Source: Escherichia coli (GTDB lineage Bacteria; Pseudomonadota; Gammaproteobacteria; Enterobacterales; Enterobacteriaceae). From it: a stretch of 64,000 nucleotides of DNA. Position 1 is the stretch's first letter, and each line of letters starts with the position of its first letter. The DNA lies in NCBI RefSeq assembly GCF_001677475.2, contig NZ_CP015229.1; one strand, written 5' to 3'. Made by a program: the position numbers and the translations under genes. The notes under the pieces were generated by a model. It was not told where the DNA came from, did no database searches, and was given only the letters and a program-made list of their open reading frames with translations. This document shows positions 1,920-41,394 of this stretch, piece by piece.

Positions 1920-1936
1920 AAAATCATTAGTGCAAT
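1920..1936 (-). promoter_or_regulatory. candidate C1-repressor operator (weak, 14/17)
   Basis: reverse complement ATTGCACTAATGATTTT against the P1 operator consensus ATTGCTCTAATAAATTT; lies in the divergent intergenic region. Confidence 0.3.
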
Positions 1937-1993
1937 TTTGGTTGTGAAATGTATCATTCTGCCCTTAAGTAGGTTCTTCATGAGGAAACAAAA

Positions 1994-2239
1994 TTGGCAG
2001 AGCGTGTTGATGATGCAGAGCTGAGCATGAATCAGTTAGAAGCTCTCAAAGACATGGCCATCGATAACATCAGAAAGCAGGCACAGGTCGTGAGCCAGGT
2101 ATTTACAGGGAAGTGTCGTTACTGCAATGAATCGATTGAATCAGGCATTTATTGTGACGCTGAATGTGCGCAATGGCACAGGGAAGAGCAGGCTGCAAAA
2201 CAGCGTAAATATGGCATGCGACCGGCAGGATTTGACTGA
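1994..2239 (+). CDS. small zinc-ribbon protein (CxxC...CxxxC)
   Basis: 81-aa track ORF with TTG start; CRYC...CDAEC cysteine pairs. Confidence 0.5.
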   Translation: MAERVDDAELSMNQLEALKDMAIDNIRKQAQVVSQVFTGKCRYCNESIESGIYCDAECAQWHREEQAAKQRKYGMRPAGFD

Positions 2240-2330
2240 TTATGTTGCGCTTTACTGAGGAAGAGTATTAGACGTCAACTAGTTTTGCCGACTCGCGCCA
2301 ACTATACTGGCCGCACCCTTCAGGGCGACA

Positions 2331-3086
2331 TCAAGTCGCGCTTGTTACTGCCTTCGCTGTCTTTTTCCTGTAGCTTTCCCCTTTCAGTTCGAACATATAT
2401 CCGTGATGGAGCAGCCTGTCTGCCGCAGCCACCGCCATAGTCTCATCCACGAAGATGCTGCCCCACATGCTGAACGGATGGTTACTGGTTATCACCAGGC
2501 TCCCACGTTCATAGCGATGCGCTATTAACTCGAACAGCACACCCGTTTCGGCACTATCGCGTTTGACATAGCCAAGATCATCCACCACTATCACCCGGTA
2601 GCGATCCAGTTTCAGTAGCAGCTCATTCAGTTTCAACTGAGCTCTGGCTTTACGTAGTTCCTGCAACAGCTCTCCTGCGCTGTAGAACCGGGCCCGGTAG
2701 CCCTGACCTACTACGCCATCCACGATCGCTGCCGCCAGATGGCTTTTCCCCAACCCGCTGGCTCCGAACAGCAGAACGTTTTCTCCTGCATCAACCCAGT
2801 CTGTCGTTTCACAGAGTTGCCGGAACTGAGCTCCATTCAGTTCCGGCACCTGACTGAAGTCGTATTCGCTCAGCGTTTTGGCAACTGGCAACCGGGCCTC
2901 CTTTTTATAACGACGCAGTTTTTCACTCTCGCGCCACAGGAGTTCTTCATTGCATAGCGTCAGAAGATAGCGCGATGGTGTCCAGCCTTCTGCCAGCGCT
3001 CGTTTTTCCAGAGCGTGCCATTCAGCTCCAACTCGTGTCAGGCGTAGTTTACGCAGGCTATGTTCAAGGTGATGGATATTGCTCAC
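2331..3086 (-). CDS. istB: IS21-family IstB helper ATPase
   Basis: 251 aa; Walker A GASGLGKSH and Walker B VIVVDDLGY; overlaps the istA stop by 4 nt. Confidence 0.9.
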   Translation of the reverse strand: MSNIHHLEHSLRKLRLTRVGAEWHALEKRALAEGWTPSRYLLTLCNEELLWRESEKLRRYKKEARLPVAKTLSEYDFSQVPELNGAQFRQLCETTDWVDAGENVLLFGASGLGKSHLAAAIVDGVVGQGYRARFYSAGELLQELRKARAQLKLNELLLKLDRYRVIVVDDLGYVKRDSAETGVLFELIAHRYERGSLVITSNHPFSMWGSIFVDETMAVAAADRLLHHGYMFELKGESYRKKTAKAVTSAT

Positions 3087-4635
3087 TGCGAACCTCCCTT
3101 GCCACGCAGTAGTTGCTCATAACTGCTCAGGTTATGCTGTATCACATTGACTACCGGCAACGCCTTTTCTTTTATACCCAGGAAGCGCATCAGCCGGTGC
3201 AGATCCACGTTTCCCGGGGTATTCAGCATCTGCTCCATACCTTTTGCCACGACTGAGATATCGTCGTATCCTGCAGCCAGTTTCAGGGCATGTACCATCA
3301 GCCTTCCTGCCATATCGGGCTCCAGATGATTACATAAGCGACGCCACAGCCTCCGCCATTCATCGTCCGGCAGGATGTCATTTCTCAGCGTTGCATGGCA
3401 GAACGCACCGGGCTTTTTTGCCAGACTGTCGATCACATGTCGGAAGTCGATACGACGGGCCCGCGTCTTCCCTTTTTCTGGTCTGACGCGAGGGCAGCTC
3501 ATGACCTCGCTGCTGCCAACGTAACAGCTCAGACGATCGTCCCATAACCTGACCCGTAACAGTTGACCTACAAGCCGGGAAGGTACGCTGTAGACGACGT
3601 GCTTCACATTGATGGTACTGCTGCGACTAACCCTCACAGTCAGCTCATCATAGTCAGCACTGCGACGAAGCGGCAGCGGTTTCAGATGAAGACGTTCTTC
3701 CTTGACCAGATCCTGATTGTTACGGTTGTGCCGCATAACCTGCTGAGTGATGAAGGCCTGATATTCTTCTATGGTGCTGAAGTCGTTACTGCCCCGCAGT
3801 ATCAGCGCCTGACAGATACGCCTTTTCAGATGTCCGTGGGCACTTTCAACCGAGCCATTTTCGTGGCCCCGACCGGCATTATTGTGTACGCCCTGCATTC
3901 CGTAGTGCTGACAGAGAGTAGCATAACGCTCAGTCAGCTCGCGGCGTCCATTCCGTAGTGCTGACAGAGAGTAGCATAACGCTCAGTCAGCTCGCGGCGT
4001 CCATCTTCGCCCTGTTGTTTCCATGCTGCCCTCAGGCTGTCCGTTTTATGTTCTACCGGCACTCCGCCCAGTTGTCCGAGGGCTTCCTGCAGGCCTTCAG
4101 CCAGAGCAGAGAAGCTCTCACCACCCAGAACAACCCGCATCCAGCTCCAGTGGCTCCATTCCAGACGGAAGTGATACAACTTATGCGCCAACAACTTACC
4201 GGCGATGGTGACAACTACACCTTTCAGTTCAGTAAAGTCCGACAGGCCTCGCAGGCCGGGCTGATGTTGCTGGCGGAACATGACCTCCTGCTCTGTACCA
4301 TACTGTAGTTTCCATTCGCGAACCCGCCGTTGCATTGTTCTTCGAAGGCTGTTGGGGTACTGGCCGGGATATTTATCCTGTAGCATCTCCAGTAGAGTTG
4401 TTGGTGTCAGAGCCGGCCTCTCTTTCAACAGAGGAACAAGCATGCTGTCCCACACAGCTTCCAGAGGATCTTTGCGTGTGCGCCAGTGCCGAACACTGTT
4501 TTTTGCCCACTCTCCTTTTTCGATCCGACGACCAGAACGGACTGAGATACCAGCCTTCATGGCCGAGATATGCTGAGTTATACCTTTCTTACGCTGAGTC
4601 ATATAGTAACTGACCTGAGAAGTATTGAGCGTCAC
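3083..4635 (-). pseudogene. istA: IS21-family IstA transposase, frameshifted
   Basis: track ORFs 3934-4635 (N-terminal 233 aa) and 3083-3898 (C-terminal 271 aa) together equal the intact 499-aa IstA of copy 2; the locus is 53 bp longer than in copy 2. Confidence 0.85.
3899..4004. repeat. perfect 2 x 53-bp tandem duplication inside istA
   Basis: unit TCCGTAGTGCTGACAGAGAGTAGCATAACGCTCAGTCAGCTCGCGGCGTCCAT appears twice here and once in copy 2 (about 47350-47402); bounded by CAT microhomology. Confidence 0.85.
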
Positions 4636-5355
4636 GCCATTTCCTGTTGGATCATGTAAATGACACTCAGGTTACAAAACCGGCCAGAATAATCGGCGCC
4701 AGGCGGACTGAGTTATTGTCGTCTCATAGAAGAGTTTCAGGCTTTTAGTGAGCGTCGAAATAAGGGGCGGTCCAGGCCAAAAACCAAAAAGGATCCATTC
4801 TTATCGCTTGCGCCGGTAAAAGAAGTTTCTCCACATGCGAAGGCACTTGCAGCACTGGCAAAGAACCCAGACCTGCGCGACGGAAATTGCGAGCACTTCG
4901 AGCAGGTTTTCATTTTTGATTACTTCGAACGCAAGCACCCTGACATCTATGAGCTGTTGCATGCAACGCCTAACGGAGGGAAACGTTCAAAAGCAACCGC
5001 CGGGAAAATGAAGGCTGAAGGGCAGAAAAAAGGTTATCCGGACATGAGTCTCGATAAAGCATGCGGTATTTATCACGGCATGCGAATTGAGCTTAAAGAA
5101 CCAAATGGTAAAGCCCCGACGAAAGAGCAGATCGCCTGGATGCGCAGGCTTAGAGAGGAAGGTTACTACGTCGTTCTTGCGTATGGTGCAGAACAAGCGA
5201 TAACCGCCATCCTGGAATACATGAGCCTTAAAAAGGGTGAGGCTATTGAGCATGTATTGAACGGTGACAAGTGGTTGTACGCTACATGAAATAATAAATT
5301 AATTAGTGCATATGTGTTCTTTGATACAGCGCACATTAACATCGGGAGAATAATC

Positions 5356-40395: not shown

Positions 40396-40406
40396 CCACC
40401 AAAAAT

Positions 40407-40432
40407 AACCCCGGCGGCTGCCGGGGTTCTCG
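40407..40432. terminator. bidirectional rho-independent terminator
   Basis: AACCCCGGC-loop-GCCGGGGTT stem flanked by A-run and T-rich run between convergent genes. Confidence 0.6.
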
Positions 40433-40439
40433 TTAACTA

Positions 40440-40694
40440 TTATCTCCTTCGCCTGCGTGCCATATATTTGCGCACCGCGCGGCGTGGACAATCTGAAGCA
40501 GTTTCTTTCTGCTGCATCAATCTCGCAGCCATGCTCAAAAATGTCAGGCACAGCCGAAGCCCGGCATACAATAGCGGTTCCAGTGGCCACGTCTCATTGA
40601 GCACATATACCGCCATGAAAATCGAGTCAAAAACTATCGCCGCCAGCGATAACTTCATTGTCGAAAGTCGGCGGAGCTGCCGGAGTTTATTCAT
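40440..40694 (-). CDS. small membrane protein downstream of lyz (lysis accessory, LydC-like position)
   Basis: 84-aa track ORF with a hydrophobic N-terminal segment and Arg-rich C-terminus; overlaps the lyz stop. Confidence 0.4.
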   Translation of the reverse strand: MNKLRQLRRLSTMKLSLAAIVFDSIFMAVYVLNETWPLEPLLYAGLRLCLTFLSMAARLMQQKETASDCPRRAVRKYMARRRRR

Positions 40695-41244
40695 TGACCA
40701 GTCCCGTCAGGCAAAGCTGGCGTTCTTTTTCACGGCGAATCTTTAAACCTCGCAGGGGCACGCCGTTACTGTTCACGAAATCAGGGAGATGGTTACACAT
40801 ATTCACCCATTCCCCTTTCTGCGCCCACTTGTGGATGGACGTTTCAACTCGCATGCCTCGCGCTTTGCTGTAGTAGGTCCGTAAGCTATTGCATCCCATA
40901 TTGAATGCCGCGCTTGTCATTGCACTGAAGGCATTATCGGGCATGTCTTTGCCCCGGAAGTGCTGATTAATACAGCGTTCAGCGATCAGGATATTCTTTT
41001 CCCAATCAGCGGCGATTTGCTGGTCTGTTTTTCGCACACCCGGCGTTACCCCGTGTGTATTACCGATCCCGTCAGTCCATACCCCCGCCGGGCACATGTA
41101 TGGATCACGTCGGCAACCTTCAGCGTTTCCGATAAGCTCAAGCCCCGCCTGGTTGGTTCGCACATTGCCATTACCCATCACGATGGTAATCATCACCGCG
41201 ATAGCGCAAATTGCACCGCCTCCTGCGGCTGTTTTTCCCTTCAT
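40687..41244 (-). CDS. lyz: SAR endolysin (T4-lysozyme-like, GH24)
   Basis: 185 aa from MKGKTAAGGGAICAIAVMITIV (signal-anchor-release segment); track ORF extends to 41343 through an upstream in-frame start. Confidence 0.85.
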   Translation of the reverse strand: MKGKTAAGGGAICAIAVMITIVMGNGNVRTNQAGLELIGNAEGCRRDPYMCPAGVWTDGIGNTHGVTPGVRKTDQQIAADWEKNILIAERCINQHFRGKDMPDNAFSAMTSAAFNMGCNSLRTYYSKARGMRVETSIHKWAQKGEWVNMCNHLPDFVNSNGVPLRGLKIRREKERQLCLTGLVNE

Positions 41245-41377
41245 AAAGACCTCATAAGCGAATTTTTTACGCTCCAGGACAAACACCCATTCACAGCCAA
41301 TACCGACTGACTCGATCCCTTTAGAAGGTACAGGATAATGCAAATCACTTGTTAGCTACGTTTCAAAGATATACATT

Positions 41378-41394
41378 ATTGCTCTAATTAATTT
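41378..41394 (+). promoter_or_regulatory. C1-repressor operator between divergent lyz and ssb
   Basis: ATTGCTCTAATTAATTT, 16/17. Confidence 0.75.

Follow-up and report, generated by a model that had tools for sequence, protein, structure and literature searches.

Which transcription units does the C1 repressor hold silent in a wild relative of bacteriophage P1, and through which sites would it act? We addressed this question for a 64,000-nucleotide stretch of Escherichia coli DNA (assembly GCF_001677475.2, contig NZ_CP015229.1), which we refer to as the window. The window belongs to a P1-like phage-plasmid; the blocks shared with P1 are 92-99% identical in BLAST comparisons and, using megablast, the region 7000-12000 matches P1 and P1-like phages at 97-98% identity. 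In a BLAST map against the P1 record AF234172, the collinear blocks run from P1 76.6 kb to the end of the record and lox, and from there to P1 41.2 kb. The window spans approximately two-thirds of a P1-type genome, and the P1 operators Op51, Op53, Op55, Op68, and Op72ab (P1 48-69 kb) lie outside it. P1 C1 binds 22 operator sequences that are spread over the genome and have the consensus ATTGCTCTAATAAATTT (PMC8546580). A sequence-only reading of the window had listed 12 sites resembling C1 operators and interpreted them as dispersed operators marking the units repressed in the lysogen. Based on motif scans, positional orthology, and gene content, we find that the sites in the window very probably are dispersed operators of the C1 repressor, and we correct and extend the list.

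C1 operator-like sites and their counterparts in P1

We scanned the window using two descriptions of the C1 operator. First, we used the asymmetric 17-bp consensus ATTGCTCTAATAAATTT, which has the conserved 5' core ATTGC[T/A]CTAAT. Allowing up to three mismatches, we identified 12 matches, while 0.26 are expected based on dinucleotide-preserving shuffles (largest number in a shuffle, 2); these 12 matches comprise 11 of the 12 previously listed sites and an additional site at 37528. Second, we used a log-odds weight matrix built from 19 C1 operators annotated in P1 (AF234172), from which the Oc1b half-site was omitted. This matrix identified 16 sites with scores of at least 15 bits (15.3-26.9 bits). 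The scores are bimodal, the next best match scoring 11.6 bits with an empty range from there to 15.3 bits. Averaged over 300 dinucleotide-preserving shuffles, 0.37 sites were found at ≥15 bits (maximum 4) and 0.06 at ≥19 bits, compared with 16 and 14 observed sites, respectively. In P1 itself, all weight-matrix matches of at least 15 bits are annotated operators except for those at 1485 and 17166. The parts of the window that have no P1 counterpart gave no weight-matrix match of at least 12 bits.

All 12 previously listed sites are present where the sequence-only reading placed them and have the 13-16 of 17 consensus matches reported for them. In the weight-matrix scan based on annotated P1 operators, i.e., the check that this reading had itself named, they score 19.5-26.9 bits and are above background. 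Its figure of at least eleven strong matches disagrees with the ten that it listed, and the list is incomplete, lacking the sites at 5296, 21461, and 24944, the Oc1b half-site (21278), and the candidate at 37528.

To relate the sites to the operators described in the AF234172 feature notes, we used the BLAST map together with ungapped 117-nt comparisons. Thirteen of the 16 sites as well as the Oc1b half-site map exactly onto annotated P1 operators (Op82, Op83, Op86a/b, Op88, Op94, Op99a-e, Op2a/b, and Op21) and are identical to them or differ by 1 nt; among the 12 previously listed sites, 10 coincide with annotated P1 operators, in line with the earlier interpretation. The sites without an annotated P1 counterpart are those at 18642, 23801, and 37528. 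The promoter hexamers annotated in P1 are kept at the orthologous sites, and the flanks are identical at 94-117 of 117 nt; in the case of Oppp and Oc1ab, the operator is kept despite divergence of one flank.

Starting from the left, the O26/Op82 orthologue (1920-1936, minus strand; ATTGCACTAATGATTTT, 23.2 bits) differs by 1 nt from P1 78528-78544 and lies in the divergent gene 26-pmgL region with flanks identical to P1 at 113 of 117 nt. The Oppp/Op83 orthologue (5296-5312, minus strand; TATGCACTAATTAATTT, 19.9 bits) is identical to P1 79435-79451 at 16 of 17 positions and is located 7 nt past the pmgM stop codon, where the flanks have diverged from P1 (102 of 117 nt identical). Upstream of pmgR, the OpmgRa/Op86a orthologue (8013-8029, plus strand; 23.4 bits) is identical to P1 82152-82168, begins 2 nt past the pmgQ stop codon, and contains the TTGCTC that also serves as the −35 hexamer of the annotated PpmgR, and the OpmgRb/Op86b orthologue (8062-8078, minus strand; 22.3 bits) is identical to P1 82201-82217 and lies 15 nt 5' of the pmgR ATG (8093). 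The OpmgT/Op88 orthologue (10154-10170, plus strand; 23.1 bits; 1 nt different from P1 84293-84309) overlaps the final base of the pap stop codon and lies 5' of a pmgT-like gene (10349-11077). The Olpa/Op94 orthologue (15336-15352, plus strand; 20.1 bits; 1 nt different from P1 89904-89920) begins 2 nt past the pdcB stop codon and 71 nt before the ATG (15423) of the late-promoter activator gene lpa, which is the gene previously described as Lpa-like.

Around c1, the bivalent operator Oc1ab (Op99ab; 21278-21305, both strands) overlaps Pc1 and the coi stop codon; it consists of the Oc1b half-site (21278-21294, plus strand), which differs by 1 nt from P1, and Oc1a (Op99a; 21289-21305, minus strand; 24.0 bits), which is identical to P1 94177-94193. 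The sites at 1920 and 21289, which the sequence-only reading called weaker candidates, are thus orthologues of annotated operators that score 23-24 bits; they carry the ATTGCACTAAT form of the core, which is common to several annotated operators. The Oc1c/Op99c orthologue (21461-21477, minus strand; ATTGCTCTAACGCTTTA, 15.3 bits) lies within coi, is identical to P1 94349-94365, and is invariant in 80 of 80 related loci. The Oc1d/Op99d orthologue (21753-21769, minus strand; 26.6 bits), identical to P1 94641-94657, overlaps P1coi, and the Oc1e/Op99e orthologue (21836-21852, plus strand; 25.8 bits), identical to P1 94724-94740, adjoins P4cre and lies 5' of lox, cra, and cre.

On the other side of c8, the Oref/Op2a orthologue (24278-24294, plus strand; 20.9 bits), identical to P1 1962-1978, overlaps P2ref and is located 133 nt past the c8 stop codon and 99 nt before the ref ATG (24393). 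Between this site and the ref ATG, we observed a strong terminator-like hairpin at 24360-24379, in which seven of eight pairs are G-C and which precedes a T-run; it is probably the attenuator named in the title of Windle et al. 1988 (cited in PMC4713147). The Omat/Op2b orthologue (24944-24960, plus strand; CATGCACTAATAAATAT, 21.1 bits), identical to P1 2628-2644, overlaps the ref stop codon and lies 5' of mat. Finally, the Ossb/Op21 orthologue (41378-41394, plus strand; 26.9 bits), identical to P1 21015-21031, is located in the divergent lyz-ssb intergenic region 20 nt before the start of ssb (41414). The assignment of ref and ssb to units behind C1 operators, Oref/Op2a and Ossb/Op21, respectively, agrees with the earlier proposal. 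The accompanying statement that several sites directly follow a stop codon is correct for that at 5296 (after pmgM), for those before lpa, pmgR, pmgT, and mat, and for the two before the immI-like module and c8 described below, but not for those before ssb and ref.

C1 itself and its partners are also encoded in the window. The product of c1 (20343-21194, minus strand) is identical to P1 C1.100 at 282 of 283 residues, and C1 is ≥99% identical in 80 of 80 related loci. The gene for the C1 inactivator, coi (21305-21514, minus strand), is a 69-amino acid open reading frame (ORF) in a block 96% identical to P1 93232-94800, and lxc (bof; 30112-30360, minus strand), encoding the co-repressor that strengthens C1 binding, is an 82-amino acid ORF collinear with P1 lxc at 9750-9998. 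With c1 essentially unchanged from P1 and both coi and lxc present, the repressor for these sites is therefore encoded in the window itself. In P1, C1 blocks overlapping or adjoining sigma-70 promoters and autoregulates c1 at Op99, a ternary complex containing Lxc tightens C1 binding, Coi and Ant1/2 inactivate C1, and the c4 RNA holds down ant (PMC8546580; AF234172 feature notes). Moreover, using reverse transcription-quantitative PCR, expression of ref, ssb, dmt, kilA, and ban in P1 was found to rise upon C1 inactivation (PMC4713147).

We considered whether the sites could be chance matches to an AT-rich, −10-like motif (TCTAAT) in AT-rich intergenic DNA. The operator core does include a −10-like hexamer, several of the sites overlap promoters in the P1 annotation, and shuffled sequence now and then scores up to 22 bits. 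Set against this, no shuffle reached more than a quarter of the 16 sites observed, 13 sites fall to the base on annotated P1 operators, and the cognate repressor is encoded in the window. The shuffle statistics together with orthology rule out an origin of the sites in chance or low complexity, which we regard as wildly improbable. Two points nevertheless weigh against taking the sites as C1 operators on the strength of the scans. For the orthologous sites, the weight-matrix test involves circularity, as the matrix was trained on their P1 counterparts, and it is independent only for 18642, 23801, and 37528; moreover, a function is assigned to the orthologous sites by homology to P1. From this homology, we infer C1 binding and promoter repression in the element analyzed here. 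C1 bound at the 17-bp sites would block the adjoining sigma-70 promoters, and the early and lytic units, i.e., lpa, ssb, ref, mat, pmgR-pmgS-pap, pmgT, pmgL, pmgN...ppp, coi, cre, and an antirepressor module, would be silent in the plasmid prophage. In the same model, C1 would also autoregulate c1, and its binding would be strengthened by Lxc and released by Coi and Ant.

The module between pacB and c1

The site at 18642-18658 (plus strand; TTTGCTCTAATAAATTG, 22.5 bits) is located 4 nt past the pacB stop codon. It is the analogue of P1 Oc4/Op51, and P1 has no counterpart at this position. The site heads a 1.7-kb insertion relative to P1 (18637-20343 in the BLAST map, at the pacB-c1 junction), in which the order of elements on the plus strand is operator, isrK-like leader, C4 antisense RNA, icd-like ORF, and ant. 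The isrK-like leader (18733-18810) matches Rfam RF01394 with 60.8 bits (gathering score 50) and the C4 antisense RNA (18835-18922) matches Rfam RF01695 with 75.9 bits (gathering score 45). The icd-like ORF (18978-19172) and the ant antirepressor ORF (19159-20310, start codon uncertain) have 70-81% nucleotide identity to P1 icd/ant, and the ant product matches the Pfam families ANT (4.4e-31) and ORF6N (4.1e-18). We note that the isrK match, which corresponds to an Hfq-binding small RNA, lies directly 5' of the C4 RNA and ends in a terminator-like hairpin at 18789-18805; P1 immI aligns just loosely over this stretch.

The element order and spacing of the module at 18642-20310 are those of immI in P1 and P7 (Op51-P51a, c4, icd, and ant1/2). 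The distance from the operator to the C4 RNA is 193 nt in the window and 203 nt in P1, and in both cases, an extended −10 element (TGn) follows the operator, i.e., TGTTACATT at 18676-18684 in the window and TGCTATCTT in P1 (P51a/P2c4). The two modules differ in location, as P1 immI adjoins sim and kilA, and no counterpart of the constitutive P1 promoter P51b is evident in the window module. The sequence-only reading had labeled this region immI; the label describes a real c4-icd-ant module, albeit a second and differently placed one.

To determine how widespread this arrangement is, we analyzed 76 related IMG/VR contigs in which c1 is ≥99% identical and both anchors are present, and measured the pacB-c1 gap using BLAST anchors. 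The ~1.7-kb insertion is present in 34 of the 76 contigs, and in all 34 an operator is located 4-7 nt past the pacB stop codon. RCS47, vB_EcoM-673R5, JL22, and phi456 have the pacB-c1 module in addition to a canonical immI, and the window is 92.7% identical to RCS47 over the module region. An ant insertion between pacB and c1 is known in pTZ20_1P and RCS47 (Venturini et al. 2019, PMC6906374), at the same site and with the same gene content, two short ORFs plus ant, as in the window. The word "operator" does not occur in that article; the putative C1 operator and the predicted C4 and isrK-like RNAs of the pacB-c1 module are identified here. A scan for consensus sigma-70 promoters detected none around 18642, a point against the operator reading at this site; the extended −10-like element TGTTACATT was read by eye. 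Based on the analogy with immI, the site at 18642 most likely belongs to the C1 regulon and would control the module as Op51 controls immI.

The site between cre and c8 and a candidate in darB

The second site without an annotated P1 counterpart, at 23801-23817 (plus strand; ATTGCTCTAATTCTTTG, 19.5 bits), has an intact 11-nt core and four mismatches to the consensus (13 of 17 matches). It is located 18 nt past the cre stop codon (23783) and 17 nt before the c8 ATG (23834), and just two positions distinguish it from Oref. The counterpart in P1 (1485-1501) and P7 (positions 189-205 of the P7 sequence compared) is ATTGCTATAATTATTTG, with the core 11-mer ATTGCTATAAT, which has A for C at core position 7. 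Of 61 related contigs, 57 have the 11-nt core ATTGCTCTAAT intact, over at least three flank haplotypes that are unalignable with each other. In an alignment of 41 haplotypes, nucleotide diversity (pi) is 0.356 in the 17-nt spacer that separates the site from the cre stop codon, 0.018 in core positions 1-11, 0.24 in positions 12-14, and 0.016 in positions 15-17. An invariant core followed by variable positions 12-14 is also the pattern among the known operators.

The same stretch has features of a promoter. Read by eye, the core TGCTCTAAT resembles an extended −10 and could double as such a promoter element. In P1 and P7, the corresponding TGCTATAAT matches an extended −10 perfectly (TGnTATAAT), and the 11-mer ATTGCTATAAT also provides the −10 region of the annotated P2ref. 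It is conceivable, if rather doubtful, that 23801 is conserved as the c8 promoter (TGCTCTAAT) or translation-initiation region and that C1 plays no part. The perfect extended −10 of P1 and P7 and its recurrence in P2ref fit this explanation, as does the fairly high conservation (pi 0.095) of the stretch between the site and the c8 ATG. It accounts poorly for positions 1-3 (ATT) and 15-17 (TTG), which are unneeded for an extended −10 and yet equally invariant (pi 0.016-0.018), for the variation at positions 12-14, which is exactly that of known operators, and for the near identity to Oref. By arithmetic, 64 kb should contain the exact 11-nt core only ~0.03 times by chance, counting both strands. 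Moreover, operators and promoter hexamers often overlap in P1, and the two functions are not exclusive. Besides this alternative, two observations count against an operator at 23801: no operator is annotated between cre and c8 in either of the curated P1 and P7 records, both of which lack the intact core, and the consensus sigma-70 scan detected no promoter around 23801. In the literature, we found no c8 operator; the only role given for c8 is a probable one in the establishment of lysogeny.

Weighing these data, we consider that 23801 is probably a real operator that overlaps the c8 promoter, C1 binding being predicted from the motif and its conservation; as a site in front of c8, it most likely belongs to the C1 regulon. 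P1 and P7 carry the A at position 7 on different 5'-flank haplotypes, and relatives with those flanks carry C (ATTGCTCTAAT); because of this, the C-to-A change looks independent in the two phages, although it may instead have spread by recombination. Tentatively, one may go further and propose that a genuine operator lies over the extended −10 of c8 and that c8 is C1-regulated in most natural P1-like phage-plasmids. If so, the change from C7 to A would have cost P1 and P7 the operator core and given them a perfect TGnTATAAT; this loss would explain why the cre-c8 site was never annotated, and the regulation of c8 in these two laboratory reference phages would be atypical for the family.

The third site, at 37528-37544 (plus strand; ATTGCCCTAATGTATTT, 16.6 bits), covers codons 19-24 at the 5' end of darB and lies ~146 nt 5' of prt. 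Its status as a C1 operator is equivocal. The sequence is identical in P1 at 17166, and its score is in the range of annotated weak operators (Oc1c, 15.3 bits). In 11 of 80 relatives, an A at position 6 gives the canonical ATTGCACTAAT core (20.9-23.4 bits), and the annotated PdarB and LPpro are ~70-130 nt away. On the opposing side, none of the annotated operators has a C at position 6, the curated P1 record contains no annotation for the site, and a single match of this kind is not unlikely by chance given the shuffle expectation at ≥15 bits. The conservation carries no information here, as the entire 5' region of darB is conserved coding sequence. We therefore consider it unlikely that C1 acts on the darB or prt-pro units through a weak but functional operator at 37528.

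Gene content of the putative C1-controlled units and comparison with P1

The sequence-only reading had also suggested that operators before a HAD-like and an ASCH-like gene place these genes in the early, C1-controlled program. The HAD-like gene is pap (9648-10154), for which the label stands: its product matches PF25109 HAD_PNKP with 46.2 bits (cut-off 27.6; E 6.7e-12) and also matches PHROG polynucleotide kinase families. It is within the pmgR-pmgS-pap unit, 1.6 kb 3' of the sites at 8013 and 8062 and 5' of that at 10154. The pmgT homologue (10349-11077) is the gene labeled ASCH-like; it encodes 242 amino acids in the window and 309 in P1. Searches with this protein gave no Pfam match up to E 10 and no named match in NCBIfam or PHROGs, and the best PDB sequence match is ASC-1 (E 0.88). 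Using an AlphaFold model (mean predicted local distance difference test score, 60), the top six Foldseek PDB matches are all ASCH/PUA-like (E 0.08-0.95) and include YqfB (E 0.076, probability 0.91), 3s9x, 1t62, and 2z0t, none reaching E 0.001; several homologues with 60-72% identity are named "ASCH domain-containing protein" by NCBI. These sub-threshold structural matches and NCBI names make the ASCH label plausible but do not establish it. As alternative candidates for the ASCH-like gene, we considered a 131-amino acid ORF (22360-22755) and c8 and rejected them, as neither had a supporting match. C1 control of the units with the HAD-like and the ASCH-like gene is already given by OpmgRa/b and OpmgT in the P1 annotation and is, thus, not a new proposal.

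Apart from the pacB-c1 module, the BLAST map revealed four regions in which the window differs from P1. An insertion at 2267-4728 is an IS21-family element located at P1 position 78868-78874, which falls within the 5' end of pmgM and is flanked by the Op82 and Op83 orthologues. It encodes IstB (2331-3086, minus strand; PF01695, 6.8e-62), and its IstA-like reading frame is broken into two ORFs (3083-3898 and 3934-4635). A 7-bp overlap between the BLAST blocks flanking the element suggests that the target was duplicated. Because the insertion sits in the 5' end of pmgM, this gene is probably disrupted. A replaced segment at 11044-12979 corresponds to the region from the 3' end of P1 pmgT to lxr (pmgU, pmgV, upfM-O, hot, and lxr) and contains a DUF551 ORF (11081-11353), a 68-amino acid ORF, and a 221-amino acid ORF (phrog_20174, unknown function). 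Between cra and cre, 3' of Oc1e/P4cre, there is a ~410-bp insertion (22337-22748 in the BLAST map; 22337-22755 when extended to the end of its ORF), in which the 131-amino acid ORF has a full-length match to phrog_20152 (unknown function). At 25657-30120, the EcoP1 type III restriction-modification (res/mod) region of P1 is swapped for two genes, which encode an autotransporter of 1084 amino acids (26268-29522) with AC_1 and Autotransporter beta-domain matches and a LuxR/GerE-family regulator (29627-29971). In addition, a 242-amino acid ORF at 42009-42737 contains a Tad2-like (Thoeris anti-defence 2) domain (PF11195, 4.4e-18, residues 167-241). This ORF is part of a ~660-bp insertion in isaA directly 3' of ssb and is, therefore, in the unit behind the Ossb operator.

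The C1 regulon described here is already known from P1, and its presence in a P1 relative does not change the understanding of the P1 system. What we add is a corrected and completed list of sites, the putative operator of a second immI-type module, and a conserved, unannotated site before c8 that is disrupted in P1 and P7. The immunity wiring of P1 appears to be kept almost unchanged in a wild P1-like phage-plasmid with different cargo, as exemplified by the IS21-family insertion, the autotransporter replacing the restriction-modification genes, and the gene for a Tad2-like domain 3' of ssb. For annotation, the sites indicate which accessory genes sit in C1-repressed units and would, therefore, be expressed only on induction or infection. 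The second c4-icd-ant module, which is common in natural relatives, is predicted to bear its own C1 operator. Compared with the C1-controlled operators of P1 (AF234172/NC_005856), the window has the same motif, the same repressor, and the same positions relative to genes; unlike the P1 annotation, it has an operator-like site after pacB and a site with an intact core before c8.

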